A stretch of DNA of 61,359 bases, filler included. It is 5 parts of 5 records of this genome, joined end to end, with 100 filler letters (N's around TTAATTAATTAA, not from the genome) between each part and the next. Parts side by side here need not be neighbours in the genome. Positions count along the whole stretch, not along the records: positions 47,480 to 61,359 come from SRR31156797_22807; 4 more parts are not named here. One strand, written 5' to 3'. Under the pieces are notes generated by a model. It had not been told where the DNA came from, ran no database searches, and was given only the letters and a program-made list of their open reading frames with translations. Numbering within the stretch: position 1 is the stretch's first letter; every line of letters begins with the position of its first letter. Positions 5,501-52,563 of this stretch are shown piece by piece. Both the position numbers and the translations under genes were made by a program.

Positions 5501-7033
5501 ACCGTCGGTGACGGAGATGATGTAATTCTTTCGGCAGGTCAGGTTGTCTAAGGCGTGGCGCTTGGTCCAGTATCCCTTTTCAAACACATCCTGGAGCGCC
5601 TCCCCAAGGGGGGTGCCGTACATGGGGTCCACCCCCTCGATATGCTGGCGGATGGCCGCCCGGTTGGCATCATCGGTCAGGTTGGGGTTCAGGGCGCTGT
5701 GGAGGGTGGCGCCGTTGGCCGTTGTACCTGTGTATGCAAAGGTTGCGAATCCCCAGTTCATCTTGCCGTGGAATTCGTCCAGGGCATAGAGCAGGGCGTC
5801 TTTTGCCACATCCAGGCGGTTCTGCATGAGATAGGAATCTCCAATGTAGGTGACCCGGATTTTATCGATGGCATACCCTTTCCCCACCACATTCCTGTCC
5901 GAGGAAAGGGCGATCTTGACCGTGTCGCTGTTGATGGTGGGCGACCACCCGTCACCCGCGGTGGGGGGATTGTCGTTATCATATTTGGCAACCAGGTTGC
6001 CGGCGCTGTCCCGCAGGGCCACATAATCATATTTCCATGAGGATACCTTACCGTCATCTTCCACATCAAACCTTGAAAAATGGACCTGGATCTGGGCCGC
6101 TCCCGGATGGGTGATGGACTGTTCCGTATCACTTTCGAGAAGTTTGTTTCCGTAGTTGCCGCCGGCGGGATATTGCAGGGGGTGGGCCAATTCGGACCAG
6201 TCCCCCGCGCCCAGGGGAATCAATTCATACTTCCAGGCCATATCTCCGGTTGAAGCCCCCTGGGGGCTCGGGTTGTTGGTGGTATAGTGAAGGTTATACA
6301 TGGACTGCATGTTCGCCCAGTTGCCGGTGACAAAGAAATAGATGTTCTGATCGCCGTCCTCCGCCGGATTGAGACTGCCCGGGGTGACGCCTTCATATCC
6401 GCTGAAATAGTAGCCCGGGGCGTTCAGGAGACCGCCAAAGCCGTTGTTTATGACGCTTCCGTCATACAGGATGCTGGGATCATAATGCTTTATGCTCCTG
6501 TTCATGGGCAGCCTTTGATTGTCTAAAAGAATATATCCCTCCGCATCCACGGTGATCCGCTGGGTGCCGACACCGTCTCCCGATAAATTACCGGAAGCGT
6601 CGATCATGGTATGGGTGTCCACAAGGTTATTTGTATACCAGAGATAGTTCGGGTCGGCGGCATCCCCGGTAAATGCGACATCTTTTCCGTCCACGGTGGC
6701 GACGGTGACACCGATGTTTCCCTTCCAGAGATAAATTTTGCGCCGCTCCTTGTGGTTTTGATAAAAGATGCTGCTGTTGTTGACGGTGTCATAGATGTAA
6801 GTGTCATACCCGACGGCGGGATTTTCGTTCAAGGTAAACAGATAATCAAACATGGCGCCGTAATCCACATTATGCTCATAGACGCCGAAATCCATGCTGC
6901 CGGAGTTATCAATGAGAATATAGCAGTTTTGTTTGGTGCTGACCTCGTAAATATCCGTGTCCTTGGCAAGCAGGGGGGGGATGAAAAGGATGAGGGAACA
7001 GACCATAATAGCGAGTGGTTTTAATGATTTCAT
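2543..7033 (-). CDS. pilY1: PilY1/PilC-family type IV pilus tip adhesin (vWA with CUB insertion, then beta-propeller)
   Basis: Signal peptide after GGAGG RBS (ATG 7033); MIDAS DNSGS; GTPLGEAL...CRKNYIISVTDG; PilY1 motifs WMGNLKKY, LGSIVHSRPVV, VGANDGMLHVFD, EIFAFVP, GQSWSDP, IYFGTGDR. Confidence 0.9.
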   Translation of the reverse strand: MKSLKPLAIMVCSLILFIPPLLAKDTDIYEVSTKQNCYILIDNSGSMDFGVYEHNVDYGAMFDYLFTLNENPAVGYDTYIYDTVNNSSIFYQNHKERRKIYLWKGNIGVTVATVDGKDVAFTGDAADPNYLWYTNNLVDTHTMIDASGNLSGDGVGTQRITVDAEGYILLDNQRLPMNRSIKHYDPSILYDGSVINNGFGGLLNAPGYYFSGYEGVTPGSLNPAEDGDQNIYFFVTGNWANMQSMYNLHYTTNNPSPQGASTGDMAWKYELIPLGAGDWSELAHPLQYPAGGNYGNKLLESDTEQSITHPGAAQIQVHFSRFDVEDDGKVSSWKYDYVALRDSAGNLVAKYDNDNPPTAGDGWSPTINSDTVKIALSSDRNVVGKGYAIDKIRVTYIGDSYLMQNRLDVAKDALLYALDEFHGKMNWGFATFAYTGTTANGATLHSALNPNLTDDANRAAIRQHIEGVDPMYGTPLGEALQDVFEKGYWTKRHALDNLTCRKNYIISVTDGFPSGDDDWNRINDVTGDPRLPFSDWDNDNWTADPYQYANPSENYYDDVGHWLYTHSWLDKSEVADPANSYFNVTTHHIAFGMDHPLLKDAAGESGGEYIAAYNKTQLVAAFYALALQMTEAVSFTAPVVSVDAANKIQNGDDLYLGLFLPQDNRSWMGNLKKYRLGDGSAQRPKIWMIYDGADNEAINSAGEFKDNTSAFWADDNDANDSDNYGVSDVREDGAGEVLTETVAAHFAAKNYWNRPIFTYDSTLGALKPLRWDTVSAASLNVVDDSTRDKTLNYTYGYTFDADPATHAPLAVRDWALGSIVHSRPVVIDYYDPANIKILLKRYIAVGANDGMLHVFDDADGREIFAFVPEDLLSSLHPISQQNLVDGVDGGISLYRRDKQPKYLIFGERRGGKAFWSLDVTDPNPLNWSVAWQYTNNELGQSWSDPKIAAVPVSVDAATGELAFKDVLVLTGGYDTEEDNYPEPFLDIDNSGSPYTLQGNLDKNEWVKTNADQDINGNTLYDRYNLGQNENGRGIYIVDIDNPANITLDHLGKQILPFSVTWCADPASEVTSGSDQKLSSMKYCFPASPSVVSGVTTYYYLDGGSLKRGIETNVLRAVYATDIYANVYRIDFTFSVNTAKPTATPTSWTWSSANEWKVTKVFSGNPGSTSVSSSFGAGIDLTDQGRKCFYPPVVSWGGACDYFDSGNYSFKSTRFSGTDEIASIYFGTGDREHPTYTMIRNRFYAIYDDSSVTAMTVDAAGNKIADVKVSNAPYSENHLLNLTCGELDESTSLSGTSKPLLQSFLKDDAVYDIGGGTYALEAGIHEDDAKGWYIVLEDQGDSQACTHCTYAGSISDATTISRDNHDGEKVLSMADLYAGILYFTSYQPSVADPCNPQGNGFSYAINYCDATSAYNLSTLNDPVGGDALDVTDRYLKVNGIFGVPSDFAIVTRKGQAGAMGMMGSNVVGPQGGNNFRIKSPGMGLELYYWREGNSQTP

Positions 7034-7043
7034 GGAACCTCCT

Positions 7044-7631
7044 TTAAATCCCGGTTTTGACACCGACTTTGATGCCGCCAAGTTCTATTATGACCTGTTT
7101 TTCCCCGTTTATCCGGAATTTGTACCCTGAAAAGGTAGACGCATCATATCCCTTTGGCGGGGCATCCGGATAAAGGTAGGTAACAAGGTATGCATAATCA
7201 TATTTGTCATCGTTGGGGTCCTGCATGAGATTTTGGTGGGGCCAGGTGTTTGTGTTGGCCGCATCAAAGGCATCCGGGAACGGTCCCTCAACAATCATAT
7301 CATTGTATGGGTCATAGGATGCCTGGGGGGGAAGAAGCGCCTGGGTATAAATGGAGGGATCGGAGATCTCATACCAGCTGAATCCGCCCGGGCCGGACCT
7401 TGCGTAGCCGACATGGGTGGCCTCCACCTCCGCCCCGCCCTCGCTCAGGTTAAAGTTTTCTTCCCATTGCTGCTGATTGCCGGCAATCTGAACTTCCATG
7501 ACCGAGGTGGTGATGGCAAGAATTCCCAGGACCGTCACAACAAGCAGGGCAAGAATGGCGGAAATGAGCGCAATGCCCTTTTCATTGTCAAGGCAACTTT
7601 TCAGAGCTGTTTTTTTGATGATACAAAGCAT
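7044..7631 (-). CDS. pilX: Minor pilin PilX-like
   Basis: KG/IALISAILALLVVTVLG prepilin segment lacking E5, followed by E..IAGN; position in the operon. Confidence 0.85.
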   Translation of the reverse strand: MLCIIKKTALKSCLDNEKGIALISAILALLVVTVLGILAITTSVMEVQIAGNQQQWEENFNLSEGGAEVEATHVGYARSGPGGFSWYEISDPSIYTQALLPPQASYDPYNDMIVEGPFPDAFDAANTNTWPHQNLMQDPNDDKYDYAYLVTYLYPDAPPKGYDASTFSGYKFRINGEKQVIIELGGIKVGVKTGI

Positions 7632-7644
7632 GGTCGATTTCCTG

Positions 7645-8169
7645 TTATATGTCAATGTCGTTGTATTTGTAGGCTGTTATCTCCAGGTGGTCGGTGCCCA
7701 GGGCCGTATCCCAATACATGAAAAGCCGTATGGTACAAAAAGGAATAAAGCTGTCCGTACCGATTACCACCGGTGTTTTATCCACATTCCAGAAAATCTG
7801 GTAGATGGTCCCCGAGGTGTCCACAAGGTTGGTTCCGCTGACCTGATAAAGGTTGCTTAACAGGGGCAGTTGGGCCGGGATGAATATATGATCCGCATTG
7901 CCGGGTGCGGGGGTCCCCCCCGAAACCGCCATTCCCGCGTTTAAATTTGTTCCGGCAGTGAGATTGGCATCATCAAACGGCAGCCGTTTGAGTTCTTCCA
8001 GGACAGACAACGCGACCGTATTGGCCTGGGAGCGGCTGGATGCGCCCGCATTCCCTTGTATCGCCTGAATCTGCATGGCCATGACGCCAAGAATGCCGAT
8101 ACTTAAAACCCCCATTGCGATAATCACTTCAATGAGTGTGAATCCCTTTTCATCTTTTGTAATACTCAT
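7645..8169 (-). CDS. pilV: Minor pilin PilV-like
   Basis: KG/FTLIEVIIAMGVLSIGILGVMAMQ prepilin motif. Confidence 0.87.
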   Translation of the reverse strand: MSITKDEKGFTLIEVIIAMGVLSIGILGVMAMQIQAIQGNAGASSRSQANTVALSVLEELKRLPFDDANLTAGTNLNAGMAVSGGTPAPGNADHIFIPAQLPLLSNLYQVSGTNLVDTSGTIYQIFWNVDKTPVVIGTDSFIPFCTIRLFMYWDTALGTDHLEITAYKYNDIDI

Positions 8170-8172
8170 TTG

Positions 8173-8919
8173 TCACAAGCCCAGATTTCTGCACTGGATG
8201 GTGGTAGCAGCAAATCGACGTCTGAAGTTATCGTTAAAAGGTCCCCATACGGTTCCGGAAGCCGTGGTGTATCTGGTGGTATTGGTGAAATCCGGATCCA
8301 TCCGCTGTGATCTTACAAGCATGGAAACCTGAACAGCCCTTATTTCATTATATCTGGATAAGGCGGGGGCGGTTGCTGATGTACCGTCGGAAAAAATATA
8401 GTTGAATTCAACCGCATCCACACTTTCGGCAATGGGTTGAAATCCCCCGCCGGTATTTGTATCTCTGCCAAAGTTGCCGGCCGTGCTCCAGTCGGCCCCC
8501 TGGGTGCCGCCATCCGCAATGCCGTTACCGTCAACGTCCACGGCCGGTGAAAAGCCGAAGGTTATGTTTTCGTCCTGATCGTCCAGGTCGCCGTCCCCCT
8601 CATTGGGTGCGATCATGTCTCCCCCGATGTCACGGGTAAACCGGATCTGTCCCGCTGTTGCGGTTACAAAACCGGGATTCAGCGATTCGGTCGGATTGCA
8701 GCCCGCTTCCCTGATATCCCGGGTCATGATCATCATGGCGGACCGGATGTTCTGCTGGATCACGGCCACATCTTCCTGGGTGCTGTAACTTTCCAGCTGG
8801 GTTGTGTAGGCGGAATAGATCCCGGCAATAACAAATGCTGAGATCAGCAGGGTGATCATAAGCTCGATAAGGGTAAATCCTGACTGTGCATCAGGTTTGT
8901 ATCCGTTGAACCGTTTCAT
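8173..8919 (-). CDS. pilW: Minor pilin PilW-like
   Basis: SG/FTLIELMI, QQNIRSAM...DIREAG, C-terminal CRNLGL; likely ATG at 8919, just after the fimT stop. Confidence 0.87.
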   Translation of the reverse strand: MKRFNGYKPDAQSGFTLIELMITLLISAFVIAGIYSAYTTQLESYSTQEDVAVIQQNIRSAMMIMTRDIREAGCNPTESLNPGFVTATAGQIRFTRDIGGDMIAPNEGDGDLDDQDENITFGFSPAVDVDGNGIADGGTQGADWSTAGNFGRDTNTGGGFQPIAESVDAVEFNYIFSDGTSATAPALSRYNEIRAVQVSMLVRSQRMDPDFTNTTRYTTASGTVWGPFNDNFRRRFAATTIQCRNLGL

Positions 8920-8920
8920 C

Positions 8921-9550
8921 TCAATTCCAGGTGCCATTGCTTCCATCCGTTGAATCGGTGCTTGTTTGAAGGCTTGTCCCTCCGGCAACGGAGAGGGTGA
9001 TTCGATACCATAGACGATTGTTGTTGGCTCTTCTTAGAACAACCCCCTCTGTCCGGCTGCTCAAGGGAAGTCCCCTTGCGGTGAATCCCGGGGTGATGTT
9101 TCCTAAAGAGAAACTGACCCCGTCCAGTGAAAAAACGCCCCAGACCGTCACAATGGAATTGTCGATGGTTCCGGAAGCAATGACCTGTTCATCTCCATTC
9201 AATATTCCGTCTCCGGGGGTTCCGGTTGTTCCGCCGTCATCCAGAAAGGAGATGTAGGCGTTTGCGGGGGCGTTGAAAGAGATGACAGCGTTACTGTAAT
9301 TCCGGATGGCCATCATCCTGGTGTTTTGAAAGGTTGAGTAGAGGTCCCTTGCATCGCCCCTGAGAATATTGTTCTGGTTCCACTCCAGAAAATTGGGATA
9401 GGCGATCGCTGTCAGAACAGCGACAATAAAGAGGACAATCATCAGTTCCAAAATGGTGAAGCCGTTTCGGCGGCACCATTTCGTCCTTGACTCATCCACG
9501 GAAAGATGATTTTCAAATGGGGCGACGGATTTGAATTGAAATGATTCCAC
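8921..9550 (-). CDS. fimT: Minor pilin FimT/FimU (GspH-like)
   Basis: NG/FTILELMIVLFIVAVLTAIAYPNF, ARDL...TRMMAI, FTARG; the start codon (GTG) is uncertain. Confidence 0.85.
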   Translation of the reverse strand: MESFQFKSVAPFENHLSVDESRTKWCRRNGFTILELMIVLFIVAVLTAIAYPNFLEWNQNNILRGDARDLYSTFQNTRMMAIRNYSNAVISFNAPANAYISFLDDGGTTGTPGDGILNGDEQVIASGTIDNSIVTVWGVFSLDGVSFSLGNITPGFTARGLPLSSRTEGVVLRRANNNRLWYRITLSVAGGTSLQTSTDSTDGSNGTWN

Positions 9551-9598
9551 GTTTTATTCACCAAATTAAAGGTTGATGTTCTGTTAATCAAATTAATA

Positions 9599-9615
9599 AG
9601 CAATATTGATGCCAA
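9599..9615 (-). promoter_or_regulatory. Sigma54 (-24/-12) promoter of the minor-pilin operon
   Basis: Minus strand TTGGCATCAATATTGCT gives GG-N10-GC, matching TGGCAC-N5-TTGCW; about 50 nt upstream of fimT, in an AT-rich tract. Confidence 0.8.
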
Positions 9616-9761
9616 TTGATTAAGTGAATCTCTTTAATTCTTTAGAGGTGTTATCATTATATAATACATAATCACCCGAATTGAGAAAGCAATTTTTTTA
9701 CGCAAAAGTACTTCGGGTGATTAATCCGTGGGACGGAACGCCCCGGGGGATGAACTGGCGG

Positions 9762-9792
9762 CGGGGGAGGGCGGTTGGTCGTCCCTCCCCCG
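9762..9792 (-). terminator. GC-rich hairpin downstream of the second pilY1
   Basis: CGGGGGAGGG-CGG ttgg TCG-t-CCCTCCCCCG; no U-tract. Confidence 0.4.
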
Positions 9793-9809
9793 GTATGGGG
9801 TCTTATCTC

Positions 9810-12800
9810 TTAGTGGAACAGGTTTCTCCAGGATAGTTTACTGCTTTTGATGATGCCGGGGTGTGATTGCTTAATCTTTTTGATCTCTCCGGGGCTGGTC
9901 TGCACAAGCGCTTCCGAACCCTCCTCGCGGCCTGTGTGAAGGTTCGGGGTTAAAGAGTAACCGCTTCCTAACTCCACCTTTTCCGGCAGCGGGGCTGTTG
10001 GCTCGCCGTTGTCCGGAACGATAACCATTTTGTGGTAGGCGGTACCGGTTTTATAGTAGAGTGCGTAGAAATAGCTTTCTCCTTCGGAGGCGCATACGTC
10101 GTTGTCCGGCAGATAGGTGGTGAAACTGACAATGTCACCCAGGACCGCCGCCTGGCCGAGGTTTCTTTCCCCGTTGTTTTCGAAATTGATATACCATCCG
10201 TCATAGTGGGTGTCCGAATCGTTCGTCAGATCATCGGCAATCATGAGTTCGATATCTTCAAAGCCGATATCGGAGCCGGGATCCTCCTGGTCGGTCACTG
10301 CCGGGGTTGAAAAGGTGATGGTGTCGTTATCAAATATCTTGATTTTTGTAACATTCATCAGGCTGGACTCCTTGGGGGATACTGTCGCCCAGGTTCGCGT
10401 TCCGGCGGAGTTGACGGGTTCCTTGATGCCGTAAAATGAATTCTGAAGGTCAAAATAGGGCGATTGTTTGTCCAGGACGCCCCAGTAACGGCCCGTTCCA
10501 AAATAGACCCAGAACCGGTTGTCATCATCAATGGTCACCGATACCGGAGAGGTGATGTGCTGGCTGTCGCCCGGCTGGGAGTTGGGATTGAAAAAGGTTG
10601 TCAATTTCCAGGCCGACGGATTCTCATCCTCGTATGTCACGATTCGGAAGACTTTTCCGTCGGTTTTTCCGAACTCGCCGTCCGAAGGAATGTAAATGAC
10701 CTCTCCCGCCCAGTATGTTCCCAATATCCCCTGGGTTGTGACAAGATCAAAGTCCACGGCAACGGGATCCGTCATAAAGGAGTTGTCGTCAAGACCGTCG
10801 GCCTTGGAAAACGTTTTTTCCACCGCCCCTGTTTCCGCATTGAGGATATAAATCCGCCCCTCCTTGCTGCTGCCGCCGTAGACCGGGGTTGTAATGTCTT
10901 TCACCGCCTGGAAGTTGTCCGGACCGGATCCGATGACGATAAACCATTTTGATCCCACCCGGATGGGGGTTGGATAGGATGTGGTGAATCCAAGGCCCGG
11001 ATCGGTGAATGTCCAGAGAAGTTCGGGCTCAATTTCCGGATTGGTGATATCGATGGCAAAATAGGACGAGGCGAACTCAAGATCACAGACGCCGTCGTTG
11101 TCCGTATCAACGGCGATGGGGGCGCCGCCCAGCCGCATTCCGCCGATGAGGACCGTTCCCCAGCCTCCCGGGTGGTCCTTGTCCGGGGTAAATATCCTTG
11201 CGTCAAATATCCTTGGTTTCAGATCCACGTAATAGACATGGACATTGTCGCTCAAGGGTTCTTTGAGCCACCTGAGATGGGGGAGCAAGGCATTGGGAAC
11301 ATAGGCCCACAATTCTGAACCCAGATCAAATTTATAACTTGTGTCGGTGGTGCTCTCGGTCCAGGAAGAGGTCGCTTCATTGTAAGTCGCGCTCGGGTCT
11401 TTGATCCACTTGGCCCCGGTGGTGCTCCAGATGGCGGGTGCATTAGAATTGGTGTCCGGGTCCCAGATCGAAGGCTGTCTGGCTAATTTGTGTTTTTCGA
11501 TGTCATAAAAACCGCCGTTGAATGCGTGGAGCATGCCGTCATTGGCCCCGGCATAGACAACGATCCTGCGATTCAGGTATTGTTTCCTGAATTGGCGGTA
11601 GGATTCGTCCCTATAGATCAGGTCATAATTTTCCGCGGGGCTTGAAACCACCGTGGGGGTCGAGTGGACGATATCCCCGAGCCTGAAAACGGTATCATCG
11701 AAGCCGTCACCCGTGGTATCAAGGGTCCGGTCCCGATAGGGCCTGTTGGTTCCGGTTTCAAGAAGCCCTTCCTCTCCCCGGATATACCGGATGATTTTCT
11801 GGGCCTCTGAAATCATTTCCGGTTCGGTAAGACCGATTTCAGGGGTTGAGCTGTTGTCGTCATGATCGTAGGTGAGACCGGGATTGAGAAAGAAATAGTT
11901 GTCATTGGCGGTATCATCCACAAAATCTACGGTAAAGGGCATTTGGCCGGAATGGTTCACATTTGATTTGTCCACACTGGAGGAGGTGTCGATGTAGTCG
12001 GTGAATATGAACCTTTTTTGGGAGTTCTGGTCATACACCCTCTGGCTGGTCACATCCAGGGCGGGATCCGAAAGCCATGAGAGCACGTCCCAGACGTAAC
12101 CGATTTGGTGCAGTTCGATTTCATCCACAAAGGTAAGAAATTTTTCCATTTCATCCCCCCCAGGAACAACACCGTTGGGCGGCGGCGTGAAATCATACCG
12201 GTTTGCCTTTCCCGGGCTGCCGTCAAACCGGATGATCAGGTCGTTGTCTTCATCCAGGGTGAAATCGTGGTTCGTATCCTCATGCATGTTTCCGTAATCA
12301 TCCACAAAAAGCGTATGGACATTTCCATACCATTTCACGGTTTGCCCCGTAAGGGGCTCCGCGATGGATTCCGTAAAGAACACCGCCTGGTAGATGGCTC
12401 CCTCTCCCCCCCGGGCGTTGGATATCACCGAGGCGGCGGTACCGGATGCCGTACGGCTCAGGATGTCGGCAATGGCCGTCATGATTTTTTCTTCCAGTTC
12501 GGCGCCGTTCTGGGCCTCGAAATAGGTGTCGGGAACGTTGTTGCCATCCTTGTCCCATTCCGGGTCCCCCACAAACGCGTCAGGGTCGGTTGAATGGGCG
12601 GTGCCGCCGGTATTGCCGTCTCCGTTGAGATCGACAAACCCGCCGGCCCTGGCCGCCTTCATCATCTGGCACCTGGCTTTTGTGGAATCATCAAAGCAGA
12701 ACACGGAATAGAGGGTGATTGTCTGGTCGATGATGTCAACGGCTTCACCCATGAGGGTGTCATCCCTGAGATCCTGGGTGTGCATGTTAAAAGCGATATC

Positions 12801-14022
12801 TTCAAGCAGGCCGCCGGTTTCACCGTTCATGACGTTGGTGTTTGCCCCGGCGGGCCAGGTGGCGTCGGGGCAGCCGCTGTTGTTGTTTCCCTCGCCGTCG
12901 GACAAAAAAATGATGAAGGATTTTGCGCAGGGCACAAATTCCGACTGATTATTGAAATAGTAGGGGTCCCAGGTGTTGTTGACCTCGAAATTAACGCTGT
13001 TGTTCGGTGGCGTGTCCGGTGAATCCTCAGGCCGGAATTCGGGTGTTTTTTGCTGGAAATATCTGACAGCTTCCCAAAGTACCTCTTCCAGGGGCGTCAT
13101 CATCTGGATATTCTGCTGGTTGATGTTATTTATAATCCGGGGCACCGGGTCGCCCCGGGGGTCCGCGGTCACGGACAGGTCTCCCACATAGTTCCTTACC
13201 CTGCCGCCGTCCGCATAGCGCCATCTAATGTCGGTGCTCCCGTCGCTGTCTATGTCCCAGGAGCCTGCAACGTTATTCCGTGTTTTGTCTTCCCCCGGTC
13301 CCTGGCCGTAGTTGAATTGCATATATCCGAACCTGACCCTGCCCATCATTTTCTGAATGATTCCCTGGACGGGAAGTTCCTCCGGCTCCACTTTGACAGC
13401 CACAATGTATCCCTTGCGGGGATGGTTCAGTTCTCCCAGGTTGAACCCGATGTCGGCCGCTGTCCGGGCCGGGGACCTGTTTTCCGGATCCGAAAGATAG
13501 TCGTCATAGTCGGGAACAGAGGCGCAGCTTGCGCCGGTCAGGTCGCCTTCACTGTCGAAGATGGCCGGAACCACGCTGAAAAAAGGGACAAAGCTGCCTG
13601 CGGGACCGCCTAAAGAATGATCCCCCCGGTCAACATTGTAGCCCATATAGGAATAAAAACCTTGATGAAAAGGGGTGTAATAGACATTCTTTGCATGGAT
13701 TCCGGTCAGGATGGATGGGGAATTGGGATCCGTGGCCGTCGTGTAGTCATTGTAGATGCGTCTGATATCCCGGTTGTCGGTGGGCATCCCCTCGAGCACG
13801 ATATCGGCCGGGTCTGGGGCGATTTTGCCGCCGGTCAACACTTTTTTGGCAACGTCGATACGGCGCATGGTGAACCAGTTGAGCCAGTTGCCTGAGAATT
13901 TCCTTACATTGGGATCACTTCCCGTGGAGCGTTCTAAGATGGCGGTGGAAGGGTCGTCAACCGTGTCCCCGTCCACATAAAAAAAGTGCCGGGTGTTATC
14001 GTATCTATAGCATTTGTTTGGA
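9810..14022 (-). CDS. pilY1: Second PilY1-family adhesin, 5'-truncated at the contig end
   Basis: RRIDVAKKVLTGG, TPLEEVLWEAVRYF, CAKSFIIFLSDG, LGDIVHSTP, YAGANDGMLHAFNGG, ELWAYVP, WVYFGTGR; the frame stays open to the gap. Confidence 0.9.
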
Positions 14023-19419: not shown

Positions 19420-20286
19420 ATGAAGAATTTGGTTTTTCTGTGCAGCATTATTTTGTTGCTTGGATTTACAGCATGTTCGCAAGATGTTACAGAACCCATT
19501 GTTTTAATTAAAACCAATGTGGGTGATATTAAGCTTAAGCTATATAACGAAACACCTGCACATCGCGATAATTTTATAAAGCTGGCTAAAGAAGGATATT
19601 TGGATAGTACTATTTTTCATAGGGTGATTAAGGATTTTATGATTCAGGGTGGTGACCCGAACTCCAAAAATGCTAAACGAGGAGAAGTTCTGGGAGAAGG
19701 TGGTCCTGATTATACTTTGCCGGCAGAATTTCATTATCCTCAGTATTTTCATAAAAAGGGCGCTTTGGCTGCTGCGAGACAATCGGATGCTGTAAATCCT
19801 GAAAAGCGATCCTCTGGTTCTCAGTTTTATATAGTGCAGGGAGAGCTGATTGAAGATTCGGAGCTTAATAAAATTGAACACCAAATGCGTGAAATGAAGC
19901 GAAGGGAAATTTTTAATGAGTTGCTTTTGCAATATGAAGATTCCCTAAATATGTTGCAAAAATCTGGTGATCGAAATAAAATGATGGCTATGCAGCAAAG
20001 TATTATGCAGGAAGTGAATAAAAAATATGGAGAGAATCCAGAGTTTAATATCCCTGATGAAGTAAAGGAAGTATACAAAACTGTTGGAGGAACTCCTCAT
20101 TTAGACGGAAGTTATACTGTTTTTGGAGAAGTAATTGAAGATAAAAATATCATTGAAAAGATAAAATCCTGGTTTGGTAAAAAGTATGGATTTGAGGTAA
20201 TTGACATCATTGCTAATGAAGAAAAAGATGCCAGAAACAGACCGTTCAAGGATATTCGTATGGAAGTAAAAGTGATTAAGGAGTAG
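19420..20286 (+). CDS. Cyclophilin-type peptidyl-prolyl isomerase, lipoprotein, with helical insert
   Basis: Lipobox FTAC; TPAHRDNF, FHRVIKDFMIQGGD, SGSQFYIVQG, PHLDGSYTVFGEV. Confidence 0.92.
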   Translation: MKNLVFLCSIILLLGFTACSQDVTEPIVLIKTNVGDIKLKLYNETPAHRDNFIKLAKEGYLDSTIFHRVIKDFMIQGGDPNSKNAKRGEVLGEGGPDYTLPAEFHYPQYFHKKGALAAARQSDAVNPEKRSSGSQFYIVQGELIEDSELNKIEHQMREMKRREIFNELLLQYEDSLNMLQKSGDRNKMMAMQQSIMQEVNKKYGENPEFNIPDEVKEVYKTVGGTPHLDGSYTVFGEVIEDKNIIEKIKSWFGKKYGFEVIDIIANEEKDARNRPFKDIRMEVKVIKE

Positions 20287-20290
20287 GTGT

Positions 20291-21094
20291 ATGTTGAGAT
20301 CAGTATTGTTTTTATTATTGTTTTTAAGTGTTTCCGTTTACTCTGGAGCACAAAGCAGGTATGTAATTATAACCACCAACTTGGGCGATATTAAAATAAT
20401 GCTGTATGATGATACGCCTAAACATCGTGATAGCTTTATTCAACTAGCGAATGAAGGGCATTTTGATGGAACCTTGTTTTATCGTGTGGTCAAGAATTTT
20501 GTCATTCAGGGAGGATCTTCCGATTCAAAAAATGCACCGGCAGGTAAACATATTGGTTACGGTAGTTTCAAATTAAATATCGATTCTGAGTTTAGAGAAA
20601 ACCGCTATCACAAAAGAGGGGTGATATGCGCCCCGCGACAACCGGAGGATATTAATCATTTTAAAATGTCCGATGTAAGTCAATTTTATATTGTACAAGG
20701 AAAAGTATATACCAACGAAGAACTGGATTTGTTGGAGAAGGCAACGAACAATCCGATTAAAATAAAGCTTAAAAAGAAATATTATCTTCCATATAAAGAA
20801 GAACTGCAAAAACTGAAAACAGAGAATCCCAAGGAGTTTAATCGCCGGTTACGCGAGATAAAAGAAAAGATCGCTTTTGATTATGCACTCTCTAATAAAC
20901 TTGAATTTACAGAAGAGCAAAGGAAGGTTTATACAACCATAGGCGGTTTGCCGGAATTGGATGGAGAATATACTGTATTTGGAGAAGTAGTTAGTGGAAT
21001 GAGTGTGGTCAATAAAATAGCGGCTCTAAAGACCGATAAAAATAGCAGACCCTTTACAGATGTGAAATTGGTAGTTAGGGTTTTAAAAAAATAG
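20291..21094 (+). CDS. Cyclophilin-type peptidyl-prolyl isomerase (secreted)
   Basis: Signal peptide; FYRVVKNFVIQGG, SQFYIVQG, LDGEYTVFGEV. Confidence 0.9.
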   Translation: MLRSVLFLLLFLSVSVYSGAQSRYVIITTNLGDIKIMLYDDTPKHRDSFIQLANEGHFDGTLFYRVVKNFVIQGGSSDSKNAPAGKHIGYGSFKLNIDSEFRENRYHKRGVICAPRQPEDINHFKMSDVSQFYIVQGKVYTNEELDLLEKATNNPIKIKLKKKYYLPYKEELQKLKTENPKEFNRRLREIKEKIAFDYALSNKLEFTEEQRKVYTTIGGLPELDGEYTVFGEVVSGMSVVNKIAALKTDKNSRPFTDVKLVVRVLKK

Positions 21095-21097
21095 TTT

Positions 21098-22393
21098 ATG
21101 CGTATCGTAGGAGTTTTATTGTTTTTATCGCTACTTATTGGGTGTAAACCCAAAACACAAAAAAGCACTATTTCTAAAGAAGAATATGAACGCCCGAAAG
21201 GTTCCTATAAACGAAATATAAAGGGCATCGTTTCTATTGAAACTTTTGATCATTACAATAGGGTGTTAAATCAGGGTTATGGATTTTATATTGACCCTTA
21301 TCATTTGGTAACTAATCTGGATCTGATTAAAGGAAGTTATAAAGCCAAAGTTTCACCGGTTGGAACAGATGATTTTCAGGATGTGGCAGGTTATACGGCT
21401 TATGATATAGACAAGAATCTGGTTATTTTAAAATCATGGCGTGAAAACCTGAATTATCTGCATCTGGATAAATCCATCAAGTCAATTCCTGATTCATTAG
21501 CTAGTCTGTATCGACGAAGTCGCAAATTATATGCACCTAAAACCGGTGTTTCAGTTGTTGCAAATGACAGCGTAAAAGAATTTGTGTTAACAGAGGATTT
21601 AAAACCGGGATTGCCGGCTTTTACTTTTTTGCATCATCTTGTGGGTTTGGTTCAATCACAACAAACGGATAGTGGAAATATTTCTGTGCTAATTCCTTCT
21701 GTTCAAATTCAGAAACTGGCAAAGCAAAATACTAAAGATCCCAAATCAATTTATGGGCTCAGACGCAAAACAAACAAGGTTTATCCTTCTTACAAAAATA
21801 TAAAGGGCTTTAGAATAGTTACAACAGAGGGAAATATTGATATTCGTTTGTACAATGAAACGCCTGTATTCAGAGATAATTTTATCAAACTTGTCAGTGA
21901 TCAGTTTTACGATAGCTTGTTGGTGCATAGGGTGATTAAAGATTTTTTAATTCAAACTGGTGCGGCAGATAGTAAACATGCCAAAAAGGATGACGTAGTG
22001 GGTTGGCAGGGACCAGGTTATAACCTGAAAACAAATATCGTAAAAGGGCTTTTCCATAAAAGAGGAGCGGTGGCAGCTTCAAAGATGCCACCGGAGCGAA
22101 ATCCTAGAGACCGATCGGATGGCTCACAGTTTTATATTATTTCTGGTAGGGTTTTTTCAGAGGGTGAATTAAAAGATATTGAAGAAGAAAAAGGATATCG
22201 GTTTTCACAGCAACAAAAGCAAGTGTATAGCACAGTTGGAGGTGCACCTCATTTGGATGGTGATTATACCGTTTTTGGAGAAGTCACCAATGGGATGGAT
22301 GTCGTGGATAAAATAGCAGGAGTAAAAACTTACGCTGTGGACAGGCCTGTAGACGATATTCGAGTGTTGAAAATAGAGATTTTAAAAAAATAG
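21098..22393 (+). CDS. Lipoprotein: degenerate trypsin-like domain plus C-terminal cyclophilin
   Basis: Lipobox LIGC; IVSIETFD...QGYGFYI...LVTNLDLI resembles a trypsin-2 N-lobe; C-terminal HRVIKDFLIQ, GSQFYII, PHLDGDYTVFGEV. Confidence 0.8.
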   Translation: MRIVGVLLFLSLLIGCKPKTQKSTISKEEYERPKGSYKRNIKGIVSIETFDHYNRVLNQGYGFYIDPYHLVTNLDLIKGSYKAKVSPVGTDDFQDVAGYTAYDIDKNLVILKSWRENLNYLHLDKSIKSIPDSLASLYRRSRKLYAPKTGVSVVANDSVKEFVLTEDLKPGLPAFTFLHHLVGLVQSQQTDSGNISVLIPSVQIQKLAKQNTKDPKSIYGLRRKTNKVYPSYKNIKGFRIVTTEGNIDIRLYNETPVFRDNFIKLVSDQFYDSLLVHRVIKDFLIQTGAADSKHAKKDDVVGWQGPGYNLKTNIVKGLFHKRGAVAASKMPPERNPRDRSDGSQFYIISGRVFSEGELKDIEEEKGYRFSQQQKQVYSTVGGAPHLDGDYTVFGEVTNGMDVVDKIAGVKTYAVDRPVDDIRVLKIEILKK

Positions 22394-22512
22394 AAAGAAT
22401 TAACTATGTAGCCTTTGTTGCCAGGTTCCTTTCTTTTTAATAAAAACTAAGCGTGTAATTGTTTGCTTTTATTAAATTTGCAAACTTAAATGAACGAAAA
22501 ATAGAGCCAGCA

Positions 22513-22983
22513 ATGCTTGACAGAATAAAAGCTTTACAGGAGGAAATTAAACAGCTAACGGCTAAATCGGCAGATGAAGCAGAACATCTGCGTATTAAAT
22601 ATTTAAGTAAGAAGGGAATTATCTCTGAGTTATTTAATGAATTTAAAACGATACCGAACGAGCAAAAGCGTGAAGTAGGTAAGGTTATCAATGTGCTTAA
22701 AAATGAAGCACAGGATATAATCAATAACCTTAAAGAAGGATTTAGCAATACGCAGGTAAAAGGTACCGGTGTTGATTTAACTTTGCCGGGAACCCTAATG
22801 AAATTAGGTAGTCGTCATCCGCTTTCATTAGTAAGAAATGAAATTGTAGATATTTTCAGTAGACTTGGTTTTAACGTTTCTGAAGGACCAGAAATTGAAG
22901 ATGATTTCCATGTATTTACTGCTTTAAATTTCCCTGAAGAGCACCCTGCCAGAGATATGCAGGATACTTTCTTTATTGAGAAA
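22513..22983 (+). CDS. pheS: Phenylalanine-tRNA ligase alpha subunit, 3'-truncated
   Basis: RIKYLSKKG, DLTLPG, GSRHPL, GPEIEDDFHVFTALNFPEEHPARDMQDTFF; TAAATTTG promoter box at 22473-22480 supports ATG 22513. Confidence 0.95.
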
Positions 22984-23083
22984 NNNNNNNNNNNNNNNNN
23001 NNNNNNNNNNNNNNNNNNNNNNNNNNNTTAATTAATTAANNNNNNNNNNNNNNNNNNNNNNNNNNNNNNNNNNNNNNNNNNNN
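22984..23083. other. Artificial contig spacer
   Basis: N-run with TTAATTAATTAA. Confidence 0.98.
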
Positions 23084-47573: not shown

Positions 47574-50339
47574 CTATTTCAAAAACTGACCAGTAGCGCT
47601 GTCGGGGTTAGCGAGAATTTCTTCGGGCGTACCGCTGGCGACGATTTGGCCGCCGTGCTCGCCTCCGCCGGGACCGAGATCGAGGACATGATCGGACGCC
47701 ATGATAACGTCGGTGTTGTGCTCGATAACGATGACAGTGGCGTTCTTGTCGACAAGAGCATGAAGAACACGGATGAGCTTGCCGACCTCGTGCATGTGTA
47801 GACCGGTGGTGGGCTCGTCGAGAATGTAGAGCGCACCGGGCAGCTTGCGCTTGCCAAGCTCGCGGGAGATTTTGATGCGCTGCGCTTCACCGCCGGAAAG
47901 CGTTGTAGCGGGCTGGCCAAGCTTGAGATATTCAAGACCGACCTGAGCGAGCACGTCGAGCTTGCGCATGAGGGAAGGATGGTTGGCGAAAAATTCACGG
48001 GCCTGACGCACGGTCATGTTGAGCACGTCCGCGATGTTCTTGCCCTTGTACTCCACTTCAAGCGTCTGGGCGTTGTACCGCTTACCTTTGCAGGCTTCGC
48101 AGGTGACGTACACGTCGGGCAGGAAATGCATTTCGACGCGAATTTGGCCGTCCCCCTTACAGGCTTCACACCGCCCACCCTTGACGTTGAAAGAGAATCG
48201 TCCGGGCTGATAGCCACGTGTACGCGCTTCTTTGGAACCGGCAAATATTTTACGAATCTCGTCGAAGATTTTGGTATAGGTGGCGGGATTGGAACGCGGC
48301 GTCCGACCAATGGGCGTCTGGTCGATGGAAATGACCTTTTCGATCTTTTCAAGACCGTCGATACCACCGATTTTTCCGGGGTTGTTGGCTTTCTGCCCAC
48401 GATGCAACAGCAAATGCTTGTACATGGAATCCATGACGAGCGAAGACTTGCCCGAACCGGATACGCCGGTCACACAGGTCATGACGCCAAGCGGAATTTC
48501 CACATCAAGATTCTTGAGATTGTTGGTCTGCACACTGCGAAGGGTGATGAATTCCTTGGCCTTGCGACGAGATTCGGGCGGCTCGATAAACATGTCGCCA
48601 CGCAAATATTTGCCGGTCAGGGAATCCGCTGTAAGCAACTTGTCCACGGGACCTTGATACACAATTTCACCACCAAGCCAGCCCGAACTGGGGCCGATTT
48701 CGATGACGTGATCCGCTTCGCGAATGGTCTCCTCGTCATGCTCGACCACGAGCACAGTGTTTCCCCGACGTTGCAGGGAACGAAGCGTGTCGAGAAGCCG
48801 CTGATTGTCGCGAGGATGCAAACCGATGGACGGCTCATCAAGAACATAGGTTACACCGACCAGACCGGAACCGAGCTGAGAGGCAAGACGAATACGCTGG
48901 GCTTCACCACCGGACAGGGTGCCCATATTGCGACCAAGCGACAAGTATTCAAGGCCTACGTTGACCATAAAGCCGAGCTTGTGAGTCAATTCCTTGAGCA
49001 ATGGTTCGGAAATAAGCGTGTCATGCCCGGAAAAATCAAGCGCATTCAACCAGTCGAGCGCACGTTGAATGGACATGGACGCAAACTCGTACATATTCTT
49101 GTCTGCCACTCGTACGGCAAGGGCTTCAGGCTTGAGGCGCGCACCCTTGCAATCAGGACATGGTCGCGACTGCTGAAACCGGGCAGTCCAATGATCCCAT
49201 ACGCCGGACTGCATCTGGCCGTATTCAAGAATGGGGACGATCCCCTGCCAGTTGACCTTGGGGTTGCCGTAAAACAAATCATCCCATGCTTCGGCTGAAA
49301 AATCTGATAGCGGAGAGTCCAATGTGATATCGTGTATTTTGCACAGCGCCTTGAGCTTCGGTCCGTATTGCTCCTGTCGGTAGGCGGATTTCCACGGGAT
49401 CACACCGCCTTCGTTCAGAGAAAGGCCCTTGTTGGGTGCAATGAGATCAGGCTCAAAATATTCGACAGTGCCGATGCCGTTGCAAGTGGGACACGCCCCC
49501 TGCGGTGAGTTGAAGGAAAAGAGCTGCGGGGTCAAACGCGGCATGGAAATTTTGCAAGACGGACAGGTCGACAGAGTAGACATAAGAATGTCGCCGGGAT
49601 TGTCGCCACCAACGACTGCGATGGTCAAACGCTCATCGCCACGTTCAAGAGCCAGTTCCACGGAATCCGTGAGTCGTTTCTTGATGCCATCTTTGATGAC
49701 GAGACGATCCACGACTAAATCAATGGTGTGCTTCTTGTGCTTTTCAAGCTCCGGCACGTCGTCGAGGGTGTACATCTGCCCACCGATACGGACTCGTACA
49801 AAGCCTTCTTTTTTGAGCTTGGCAAACAGATCCTTGTGCGTGCCTTTCTGATGCTCAATCAGTGGTGCCAGCAACATGAACTTAGTCCCCTGCTCCATAG
49901 CGAGGATGGTCTGCACGATTTCATCCGTAGTCTGGGCCGCGATAGCCTTGCCACACTTGGGACAATAAAACTTGCCGAGCCGCGCGTAGAATACACGCAG
50001 GAAATCATAAACTTCGGTCACAGTGCCGACCGTGGAACGCGGGTTGCGGGTAGCTGTCTGCTGTTCCAAGGAGATTGCGGGGGACAACCCCTCGACCTTA
50101 TCCACATCCGGCTTGTCCATCTGGGGCAGAAACTGACGAGCGTATGCGGACAGGGATTCGACATACCGCCGTTGCCCTTCGGCATAAACGATGTCGAACG
50201 CAAGCGTGGATTTACCCGAGCCTGACGGACCACACACCACGACCAACTGATCGCGGGGGATGTCCAAAGTCAGGTCCTTGAGATTGTGATGCCGGGCGCC
50301 TTCTATATGAATGGATTTCTTGTCTGCTGATTGAGTCAT
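47574..50339 (-). CDS. uvrA: Excinuclease ABC subunit A
   Basis: Two ABC ATPase modules (GPSGSGKS, GVSGSGKS, LSGGEAQRI), zinc fingers, EGQRRYVESLS; likely ATG at 50339. Confidence 0.97.
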   Translation of the reverse strand: MTQSADKKSIHIEGARHHNLKDLTLDIPRDQLVVVCGPSGSGKSTLAFDIVYAEGQRRYVESLSAYARQFLPQMDKPDVDKVEGLSPAISLEQQTATRNPRSTVGTVTEVYDFLRVFYARLGKFYCPKCGKAIAAQTTDEIVQTILAMEQGTKFMLLAPLIEHQKGTHKDLFAKLKKEGFVRVRIGGQMYTLDDVPELEKHKKHTIDLVVDRLVIKDGIKKRLTDSVELALERGDERLTIAVVGGDNPGDILMSTLSTCPSCKISMPRLTPQLFSFNSPQGACPTCNGIGTVEYFEPDLIAPNKGLSLNEGGVIPWKSAYRQEQYGPKLKALCKIHDITLDSPLSDFSAEAWDDLFYGNPKVNWQGIVPILEYGQMQSGVWDHWTARFQQSRPCPDCKGARLKPEALAVRVADKNMYEFASMSIQRALDWLNALDFSGHDTLISEPLLKELTHKLGFMVNVGLEYLSLGRNMGTLSGGEAQRIRLASQLGSGLVGVTYVLDEPSIGLHPRDNQRLLDTLRSLQRRGNTVLVVEHDEETIREADHVIEIGPSSGWLGGEIVYQGPVDKLLTADSLTGKYLRGDMFIEPPESRRKAKEFITLRSVQTNNLKNLDVEIPLGVMTCVTGVSGSGKSSLVMDSMYKHLLLHRGQKANNPGKIGGIDGLEKIEKVISIDQTPIGRTPRSNPATYTKIFDEIRKIFAGSKEARTRGYQPGRFSFNVKGGRCEACKGDGQIRVEMHFLPDVYVTCEACKGKRYNAQTLEVEYKGKNIADVLNMTVRQAREFFANHPSLMRKLDVLAQVGLEYLKLGQPATTLSGGEAQRIKISRELGKRKLPGALYILDEPTTGLHMHEVGKLIRVLHALVDKNATVIVIEHNTDVIMASDHVLDLGPGGGEHGGQIVASGTPEEILANPDSATGQFLK

Positions 50340-50473
50340 TGACCGAGAGTAACCATTCCTGAATAGAAGGCAAGCCGGAAGGAGAAAATGATGGAAATGG
50401 TCAAGTGCACGTTGACTTTCGACACAACGGTCACACTCTAATTCAGATACTAGACTTTTCAAGGAGGGATTTA

Positions 50474-50977
50474 ATGATCAAACCGATGAATGATCTGCCT
50501 ATGGATACAAAAAATCGGGATTGCACCTGTGGTGGTCCACCGGAATTCATAGAAACGGCCTGCCCCAAGTGCGGCGAAAAAGGTGTGCGTGTTAAATCCG
50601 GCACTGTACGATATCTGCTTGATAGCGAACATCGTACTGCTGTCACTGATAAAATATATGGACTGTGTCTTTCGTCAGATTGTGCTGTGTCATGGTATGC
50701 TCAAGATGATTCTCATCACTTTACCACCGACCAGACGGCCACACCGATTTGGACCAAAGCCGACGTTGATCCGATCATGGCCTGTTATTGTAATAAGATC
50801 ACCAAAGAGATGGTGTTTGACGCAGTAAAAACCAACGGTTTAAATGACATGCAAAGCATCATTGAGCATTACCGAAATGAAATGAAATCCATGTGTGCCG
50901 TAAAAAATCCCACAGGAAAATGTTGTTCAGAGGCATTCAATGTGATGATTCAGGAAGCCAAAAAGTTACGACGGTAA
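50474..50977 (+). CDS. CopZ-N-terminal-like zinc / BFD-like [2Fe-2S] protein
   Basis: AAGGAGG RBS; CPKCG..G..VK..TV, LC...DC.V.WY, CYC, C..KNP.GKCC. Confidence 0.8.
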   Translation: MIKPMNDLPMDTKNRDCTCGGPPEFIETACPKCGEKGVRVKSGTVRYLLDSEHRTAVTDKIYGLCLSSDCAVSWYAQDDSHHFTTDQTATPIWTKADVDPIMACYCNKITKEMVFDAVKTNGLNDMQSIIEHYRNEMKSMCAVKNPTGKCCSEAFNVMIQEAKKLRR

Positions 50978-51082
50978 GCAGTGAGTTTGTTTTAAACACA
51001 ATTTGATTCCAGACGTAACCGGCAGACATAAAACTACAATGTAAAGGTTTACAGTCGTAGCATTGATGTGTATTTATTCCAC

Positions 51083-51155
51083 GAAGAAAAGCCAAACCCG
51101 TTGCGAAGCGGGGACGGAAAGCCACGGGTCTCATCGAGACCGCCGGGTTGTCAAA
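51083..51155 (+). ncRNA. Cyclic dinucleotide GEMM-I (c-di-GMP-I class) riboswitch aptamer
   Basis: GCCAAA-CCCGUU-GCGA-AGCGGG-GAC-GG-AAAGCC-AC-GGGUCUC...GAGAC-CG-CCGGGUUG: P2 with GNRA loop, GAC bulge and P3 as in the GEMM-I consensus; upstream of an HD-GYP gene. Confidence 0.85.
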
Positions 51156-51227
51156 GCCTTACTCCTCGAATTCACGTACTACGGTCTCTGACTGCTTTGG
51201 CTTCTCCGCTTTCCCAAGGAAAAAAGA

Positions 51228-52235
51228 ATGCAGGACGCAACAGCGACTGGGATCGAAAACGAAGAGTCCCAAAAAATATCAGCGAACAATGTTTTTAAAG
51301 TGTCGCCATACATGGTCATCCCTTCCAGGGTCGGCGGTTTTTCGCTGTATCTGAAACAGGATAAAAACTTTGTGCTGTATGCGGAAAAAGGTGTCCTGTT
51401 TACCGAAGAGCATACCAAGCGTCTCATTATGCTTGATGTAAAGCACTTGTATGTCAAAGCATCAGACTACGCTTTTTATACAAGTTACCTTCAGGACAAC
51501 ATCATGGAGGTGCTGGAAGATGAATCCATCCCTCTATCCGAACGAGCCAGAGCGTGGAACGACGCCACTGTGGCCATTGCCAAATCAGCTTTTGATCGTT
51601 CACTGCCTGCCCCTGTAGACAAGCGGCAATTCAAACGCATCAAGTCTCTCATCTCCAATTCTCTCACATTTCTAACCCGCGACGATGCTCTGCGCGAACT
51701 GTCTCGATTCATCAGAGAAGGGGACAGCCTGTACCGCCACGGCATTGCCGTCATGGTCCTGACCATTGTCACCCTCGCCACGTTCATGAAAGATGAACAC
51801 GACACGTTGGTGGCCGTCGGCCTTGGGGCCATGCTCCATGACATCGGCAAGTTGGAACTGCCCCAAAATATATTCGTCAACAGATACGAGACCCTTAACC
51901 GTGAAGGCAAAGATCTCGTACGTTCGCATCCTGCGCTTGGTGTAGGCTATTGTTCTTCGCTCCCGCTGCCGCAGGAAACTTTGCAGTGCATTCTTTTCCA
52001 TCACGAACGGGAAGACGGGACAGGGTATCCCTCCGGCTCAACAGGAAACTTTCTTCCAGATTACGTCAAGGTTCTGACCATGTGCAATCTGTATGACAAT
52101 CTGGTCACTGGAAAATATGGTCGTAAAAAAACGCCTTTCGAAGCGTTGACGCACATCCGATCCATGCGAAGTGCCTTTGACCAAAAAATGCTCAAACGAT
52201 TGATTTCAGTGCTTGCCACGTCTGACTTGGCCTAA
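51228..52235 (+). CDS. HD-GYP domain protein
   Basis: YRHG, LHDIGK, SHP..G, HHEREDGTGYP; C-terminal motifs are divergent. Confidence 0.88.
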   Translation: MQDATATGIENEESQKISANNVFKVSPYMVIPSRVGGFSLYLKQDKNFVLYAEKGVLFTEEHTKRLIMLDVKHLYVKASDYAFYTSYLQDNIMEVLEDESIPLSERARAWNDATVAIAKSAFDRSLPAPVDKRQFKRIKSLISNSLTFLTRDDALRELSRFIREGDSLYRHGIAVMVLTIVTLATFMKDEHDTLVAVGLGAMLHDIGKLELPQNIFVNRYETLNREGKDLVRSHPALGVGYCSSLPLPQETLQCILFHHEREDGTGYPSGSTGNFLPDYVKVLTMCNLYDNLVTGKYGRKKTPFEALTHIRSMRSAFDQKMLKRLISVLATSDLA

Positions 52236-52290: not shown

Positions 52291-52563
52291 ATGAAGAAGA
52301 GTTCACGCAATCGCCCCAGAAAAAGAATCTGTCCGCCTCCGCCACAGACATCAGCACGCACCTATGTTCGCATCAACACCGCGGACATCGGCTTGTTTCG
52401 TTTTCTATTGGAAGGATATGACAACCTCGGAATTTTCACTGTAGTGAATAAATTCAAAGGGATCTTACTGTTACGATACAGTCCACACCTCAAACGAGAG
52501 GTAAAAGTGTTTTTAAAGGCTGCTGCGACTGAAATGGAACTTGAAATTCTCCCAAGCCTATAA
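52291..52563 (+). CDS. DUF4911-like small protein
   Basis: DIGLFRFLLEGYDNLG.FTVV pattern. Confidence 0.7.
   Translation: MKKSSRNRPRKRICPPPPQTSARTYVRINTADIGLFRFLLEGYDNLGIFTVVNKFKGILLLRYSPHLKREVKVFLKAAATEMELEILPSL

Follow-up and report, generated by a model that had tools for sequence, protein, structure and literature searches.

The DNA analysed here, the window, is a stretch of 61,359 nucleotides made of five joined parts of one genome's records. A single riboswitch was found in this 61-kb window by cmscan, at 51082-51156 on the plus strand. Upstream of it lie uvrA (47574-50462, minus strand) and a gene for a CopZ-like zinc-finger protein (50405-50977, plus strand), and on its 3' side a segment of 71 nucleotides (51157-51227, plus strand) leads to the ATG, at 51228, of the gene that it controls. 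This gene (51228-52235, plus strand) encodes a 335-aa HD-GYP-type protein with an HD_5 domain (PF13487, E-value 1.3e-21). The reading frame is intact, and the protein carries the segments LHDIGK and HHEREDGTGYP, which represent the HD and HHExxDGxGYP motifs. Its N-terminal half is uncharacterised, and in NCBIfam the protein matches a c-di-GMP phosphodiesterase family only weakly. A small DUF4911 reading frame (52291-52563, plus strand) follows just 3' of the HD-GYP gene on the same strand, and it may share the HD-GYP transcript and thus the control by the riboswitch. Several other features of the window were recorded. A type IV pilus minor-pilin-like cluster with PilX_N, PilW and N_methyl motifs is found at 2543-13976 on the minus strand, and beside it are a PilY1-like protein of 1388 aa and a protein of 1512 aa that matches nothing in Pfam. 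At 19420-22393 (plus strand) there are three consecutive genes for cyclophilin-type peptidyl-prolyl isomerases. They are followed by a 190-aa reading frame at 22459-23031 (plus strand), which comprises the N-terminal domain of PheS and only the first 73 profile positions of the core; this short PheS frame could reflect a frameshift or a split gene, or could have been produced by the ORF filter.

The best Rfam match of the riboswitch is to RF03168 (c-di-GMP-I-UAU), with 69.4 bits against a gathering threshold of 65.9 and an E-value of 5.5e-13, over the full model (positions 1-81). Two further matches, to families of the same clan, have lower scores. To be independent of this variant model, we made a covariance model, R1, from the GEMM-I secondary structure and an alignment, A1, of 18 gapless canonical aptamers of 75 nt from related genomes and metagenome contigs. 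R1 matched 51082-51156 alone in the 61-kb window, without gaps, with 90.7 bits and an E-value of 1.4e-21. In the RF03168 and R1 alignments, helix P2 is composed of 51092-93/51116-17 and 51097-102/51107-12 and is closed by the GNRA loop GCGA (51103-06), and helix P3 is composed of 51120-23 and 51125-32, paired with 51136-40 and 51143-49. The tetraloop, the interhelical C51115 (of GAC) and the bulged G51142 are all present and their columns are invariant in A1; the role of the tetraloop and of the pair formed by the interhelical C and the bulged G is described in PMC3764141. All other invariant core columns of the family are kept in the R1 alignment. Helix P1, already called weak in an earlier sequence-only reading of this DNA, consists by eye of at most the pair G51086-C51152 or a 3-bp alternative; no P1 is included in RF03168 itself. 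The aptamer contains the hexamer AAAGCC at three places, at 51088-51093 in the 5' junction, at 51118-51123 in the centre and at 51153-51158 in the 3' tail.

In the Vc2 aptamer, C92 is the Watson-Crick partner of the second ligand guanine. Structural work on Vc2 describes G20 as reading the Hoogsteen face of one ligand guanine and C92 as pairing with the other (PMC6140456), with A47 intercalated between the two ligand bases (PMC9049102). The RF03168 and R1 alignments agree on all three columns. G51091 occupies that of G20 (model position 10, just 5' of the first P2 pair), A51118 that of A47 (model position 37, directly after the closing pair) and U51151 that of C92 in J3/1, as the second unpaired nucleotide past the 3' strand of P3. 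The column of 51151 is C in 18 of 18 A1 sequences, and it is taken as position 92 because J3-1 is described as holding C92 and then C93, whose partner, at the top of P1, is G14 (PMC3764141). The sequence-only reading had placed a GEMM-I riboswitch here and had assigned these three bases by eye; its alignment is upheld by both covariance models. The covariance match extends over the whole aptamer, for the clan member RF03168 as for R1, and P2, P3, the conserved junctions, G20 (G51091) and A47 (A51118) are those of GEMM-I; at position 92, U51151 replaces the C. This replacement does not exclude membership, since position 92 is described as less conserved than A47 (PMC9049102) and since U is found there in 3 of 126 aptamers of the subtype. 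The segment 51082-51156 is a genuine GEMM-I c-di-GMP-type aptamer with the pocket G20/A47/U92.

The name of the best-matching Rfam family could suggest that the aptamer belongs to the c-di-GMP-I-UAU variant class, a reading that we consider highly improbable. The consensus at positions 20, 47 and 92 is U, A, U in RF03168 and G, G, C in RF03167 (c-di-GMP-I-GGC). The window aptamer passes the gathering threshold of RF03168, which is its best Rfam score (69.4 against 65.9), it has U at position 92 (model position 76), and its 3' tail, GUCAAAG, agrees at every position with the UAU consensus GUCaAag. However, its position 20 (model position 10) is G51091 and not the conserved U, and A51118 stands where RF03167 has G47 (model position 37). 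Matches to RF03168 above the cut-off were obtained in nine of 302 sampled genomes, G001 being counted in both searches, and all nine read G/A/C; no true U/A/U aptamer was found among those read from the 302 genome searches. RF03168 therefore does not discriminate between pockets. Similarly, the orthologous aptamers score best on RF03167, with 58.5-71.6 bits, yet they carry A47. These matches reflect the deltaproteobacterial sequence background, not the pocket. The loci L034-L037, L318-L321, L323 and L001-L016 all give above-threshold RF03168 or RF03167 matches though their pocket is G/A/C. Annotations with these two families can thus mislabel canonical c-di-GMP riboswitches of Desulfobacterota, and positions 20, 47 and 92 should be checked.

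Species-representative relatives of the HD-GYP protein come from Pseudodesulfovibrio and other Desulfovibrionaceae, with at most 68% identity; among metagenome relatives, L185 has 93% and the others 60-68%. The R1 search found an aptamer upstream of the gene in 20 of 32 related loci, and position 92 is C in all 20 of these orthologous leaders, L185 included. In 19 of them C92 was called from the R1 alignment; in L005, which has a long P3 insertion, it was called by reading the sequence, ...AGCCGAATT GCC..., within the range given by Rfam. U92 is thus a derived C-to-U transition, since the orthologues, including the closest, have C92. The insertion in L005 (1288-1432 of a Pseudodesulfovibrio MAG) is of about 70 nt and lies inside P3 of the orthologous aptamer; long P3 insertions are also present in the orthologues L004, L006, L009 and L192. 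Relative to L185, the stems of the window aptamer contain pair-preserving changes, a U-A/U·G swap in P2 and a G-C to G·U change in P3.

We then compared the region around 51151 with contigs from four sequencing runs of other organisms and studies, which share 24-41% of the window's words. Orthologous contigs across 51151 are present in three of these runs and the counts rest on them; the fourth, X10, has no orthologous contig over this position. Record 17 of X6 and record 21 of X8 span all 601 bases compared, with 35 and 36 differing letters, respectively, and record 13 of X2 spans 51098-51500 with 15. The contigs, which are consensus sequences, are about 94% identical to the window there, and among the better-supported differences, which are those listed ahead of twenty rows with less support (51135, 51159, 51166, 51167, 51172, 51176, 51178, 51179, 51192, 51205 and 51220) none is at 51151. 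X2 and X8 are taken to have T at 51151, because a T-to-C difference there would have support equal to that of the differences listed, and X6 is likely, from the same comparison, to have T as well. Contigs of paralogous riboswitches cover only 51087-51150; in some of them the loose end runs on with CC, as in the canonical GCC. The sequence-only reading had allowed that, if orthologues had C, the U could be a private mutation or a sequencing error. The orthologues do have C, but the base is neither an error nor private to one assembly, as it is common to contigs of two, probably three, other studies. In these sister contigs, the segment 51135-51156 has one listed change, the 71-nt platform has ten, and the upstream spacer has 13 plus indels. 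Retention of U92 in sisters that have diverged by about 6% shows inheritance and not selection; a neutral site would look alike.

Upstream of the aptamer, promoter-like elements were located by eye from conservation (51048-51076, plus strand): a -35 element TTTACA (51048-53), a spacer of 17 nt and a -10 element TATTTA (51071-76). In most of the orthologous leaders compared, a TTTACA ... GTAT(A/G)... pair is found at the same distance from the aptamer, and the leaders of L013, L014 and L016 carry TTGAC/CTA variants of it; a scan for the sigma-70 consensus gave no match. From these elements, the transcript would start near 51083-84, about 8 nt before G20, and the aptamer would occupy the extreme 5' end of the RNA. 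If the promoter is right, such a start would explain why no P1 can be drawn.

The segment 51157-51227, described here as the expression platform, contains three stretches that are complementary to the aptamer core. The segment AAGCCAAA (51089-96) is complementary to TTTGGCTT (51196-203; UUUGGCUU in RNA form), GAGACCG (51136-42) to CGGTCTC (51182-88), and GGAAAGC (51116-22), which includes A47, to GCTTTCC (51208-51214). The three complements had been noticed before; they stand, with the correction that GCTTTCC does not lie at 51207-13. When the platform was dinucleotide-shuffled 2000 times, only 12 of the shuffled sequences had three or more perfectly complementary segments of 7 nt or longer, and the complementarity between aptamer and platform exceeds that expected by chance. 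In L185, CGGTCTC is kept in full, TTTGGC at 6 of 8 positions and CTTTCC at 6 of 7, and none of the ten platform substitutions listed for the sister contigs is inside the three segments. The stretch UUUCC (51210-14) could pair instead with GGAAA (51218-22), which overlaps the Shine-Dalgarno sequence AAGGA (51216-20) ahead of the ATG at 51228. Furthermore, GCUUUGGC of the platform can also pair with the 3' tail of the aptamer (51150-57), an arrangement in which U92 would form a U·G pair and relatives would have C-G. Because AAAGCC occurs three times in the aptamer, the platform stretches GGCUU and GCUUUGG can pair in several registers. Folding of the leader gave z-scores of -0.07 and +0.61. When the aptamer was forced in folding, the predicted unpaired fraction of the Shine-Dalgarno region changed from 0.57 to 0.43 in the window; in the orthologues the effect on accessibility was mixed, with several of their start codons mis-called by the script. 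As folding shows no clear difference between bound and free states, we make no ON or OFF assignment for the ligand. A terminator was also considered and rejected; its sole candidate hairpin (51182-94) has 5 bp and is not kept in L185. The platform looks like a translational switch.

How often this pocket occurs was addressed by several searches. Among Desulfovibrionaceae, RF03168 matches were obtained in 42 of 151 genomes, and no aptamer parsed from related Desulfovibrionaceae loci has GUC at positions 91-93. The parsed rows, of which four are duplicates of the same place and one (L005) is a misparse, mostly read GCC, with ACC twice and GCA and GCU once each. A cross-bacterial search with the pattern AAAGCCACGG-N(12-42)-CCGGGTTGTC matched at least 122 loci, among which at least 34 further complete G20/A47/U92 aptamers were found; the other 88 loci are chance matches or aptamers that the parser cannot handle. 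In Geobacter hydrogenophilus, two such aptamers (L124, L125), separated by about 2.9 kb, precede one subtilase gene each, and a Geobacter MAG has the same tandem pair (L180, L181). The two subtilase genes are nearly identical, and their arrangement is kept in the second Geobacter genome. G/A/U aptamers are also found in two Alicyclobacillus genomes (L090, L175) and in five Desulfuromonadales-like loci, in which compensatory changes occur in the stems. Further carriers are Methylomonas aurea, Shewanella mangrovi, a Myxococcales MAG and a Nitrospirota MAG. Across the carriers, U92 is retained although compensatory substitutions have altered the stems. With position 92 left free in the pattern, the first 120 loci listed gave 126 distinct aptamers; position 92 is C in 123 of them and U in 3 (2.4%). 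In a phylum-level sample of 39 R1-aligned matches, some of them from overlapping loci, 36 read G/A/C, two A/A/C and one G/A/U. The natural G20/A47/U92 pocket is a rare but recurrent variant of GEMM-I, and the rarity implied by the sequence-only reading was overstated, as G20/U92 recurs in many lineages. A literature search for natural U92 variants returned mutant studies and reviews only.

A derived base that is C in 20 of 20 orthologues, that is rare in its subtype (3 of 126) and that is shared by a clade as young as about 6% divergence could be a neutral or mildly damaging substitution, in a switch that is weakened or being lost, with no adaptive meaning. The effect of the same change in Vc2, where C92U is reported to cut activity 30-fold at native c-di-GMP (bioRxiv 10.1101/617340), would agree with such a loss. 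We nevertheless regard this as unlikely, because the other invariant core columns of the family are all kept, the stems have pair-preserving substitutions relative to L185, the platform complements are conserved, and in several other clades U92 pockets have been kept in more than one species.

Another possibility is that the pocket has changed its ligand. The pair G20/U92 could read 3',3'-cGAMP in the orientation opposite to that of GEMM-Ib, with the guanine on G20 and the adenine paired to U92, or it could be bispecific; we consider either improbable. Base-pairing logic favours cGAMP, in that U pairs with A. The known cGAMP class is reported to have arisen when one base of the pocket changed, the other position being affected in that case, by G20A (PMC6140456), and an engineered G20A/C92U double mutant to bind c-di-AMP (PMC7288161, PMC9049102). 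G/A/U aptamers moreover occur in Geobacter, a cGAMP-using genus. Hypr GGDEF enzymes are described as having Ser after GHxxG in place of the canonical Asp (PMC6456294), and our scan for them found one Ser-type domain (L357) among 20 GGDEF matches in G. hydrogenophilus, which served as its positive control. In two related complete genomes, by contrast, which give an indirect test for the genome of the window, the scan found no Hypr GGDEF: the motif was readable in 16 of 21 and 18 of 22 matches, with nine of the 43 lacking a readable motif, and all 34 readable motifs have Asp. No GGDEF or other cyclase was detected among the 40 ORFs scanned in the 61-kb window. A20 is absent from all aptamers parsed at Desulfovibrionaceae loci, so that there is no sign of cGAMP riboswitches among them. 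The same gene is controlled by C92 aptamers in all 20 orthologous leaders, and the other G/A/U aptamers precede genes of the usual GEMM-I kind. A change of specificity is possible, but it is not indicated. To the wider proposal that natural G20/A47/U92 aptamers form a distinct, recurrently evolved class, for flipped cGAMP sensing or for sensing both c-di-GMP and cGAMP, we give equally little credence. Were cGAMP reading true, cGAMP sensing would have evolved from c-di-GMP sensing a second time, by an independent route.

The reading that we favour, and hold to be probably correct from the comparisons above, is that of a functional class-I c-di-GMP riboswitch on the HD-GYP gene, in which U92 weakens affinity and re-tunes the threshold. 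In reports on Vc2, the C92U mutant loses most of its activity in vivo, with a 30-fold cut at native c-di-GMP. It is partly rescued by overexpression of a diguanylate cyclase, more so than the double mutant, and the authors tie this stronger rescue to a higher residual affinity (bioRxiv 10.1101/617340). A47 is described as conserved in all class-I members, and G20 and C92 as less so; affinities of 0.011 nM for the wild type and 4900 nM for G20A/C92U are given in the same source, together with the crystal structures of pocket mutants 3MUM, 3MUR and 3MUT (PMC9049102). A sensor of c-di-GMP with a raised threshold appears the likeliest reading because of this behaviour of C92U, this pattern of pocket conservation and one further study. 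In that study, work of Smith and colleagues from 2010, the commonest natural pocket variants are said still to pair with the ligand guanines. The sequence-only reading had offered a low-affinity c-di-GMP sensor giving feedback on a phosphodiesterase gene as one of two options, the other being the flipped cGAMP reading, for which we found no support, and the first option fits the intact aptamer, the HD-GYP motifs and the continued responsiveness reported for Vc2 C92U.

The proposed mechanism can be described as follows. The mRNA of the HD-GYP phosphodiesterase-type gene would begin with the riboswitch, in which the GEMM-I architecture and the G20 and A47 contacts are kept. C92 has changed to U in the lineage that comprises this genome and its closest sisters, and a G·U wobble would then take the place of the G-C pair in the reading of the second c-di-GMP guanine. 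Sensing of c-di-GMP would persist but would require a higher concentration, so that the threshold would be re-tuned for a gene whose product degrades this messenger. The signal may be passed on by mutually exclusive pairing, the three platform segments invading the ligand-free aptamer core, and GCUUUCC may alternate between GGAAAGC of the aptamer and the Shine-Dalgarno region. The ancestral state worked with C, and U92 could nonetheless be slightly harmful or neutral rather than tuning. If U92 does lower the affinity for c-di-GMP, this would be a natural case in which one pocket base tunes the threshold of a messenger-degrading gene, and such tuning, if true, bears on how one riboswitch class gives different response levels.

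Compared with known systems, the window aptamer resembles Vc2 (RF01051, clan CL00126) in its two hairpins, the GNRA loop on P2, the GAC and AG interhelical nucleotides, the G20 and A47 contacts, its position in a 5' leader and its control of a c-di-GMP turnover gene. It differs from Vc2 in having U92 instead of C92, a short P3 with a 3-nt loop and essentially no P1, as the predicted transcript start is only about 8 nt before G20. RF03168 and RF03167 are the top matches for the window aptamer and for its orthologues, respectively, and U92 and the 3' tail fit the UAU consensus; however, the window aptamer has G20 and not U20, the orthologues have A47 and not G47, and neither pocket signature is present. 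The GEMM-Ib 3',3'-cGAMP riboswitches of Geobacter (G20A) are likewise one-base variants of the GEMM-I pocket, of a kind that could alter ligand choice. Here the change is at position 92 and not at 20, and the A20 by which that class is defined (PMC6140456) is absent, G51091 being in its place. The closest parallel in the pocket itself is the engineered C92U mutant of Vc2 (3MUR, PMC9049102), in which an aptamer that is canonical elsewhere carries this one pocket substitution and which is described as answering c-di-GMP only at raised levels (bioRxiv 10.1101/617340). In the window, by contrast, the change is natural, is fixed in a small clade and stands in another sequence background.
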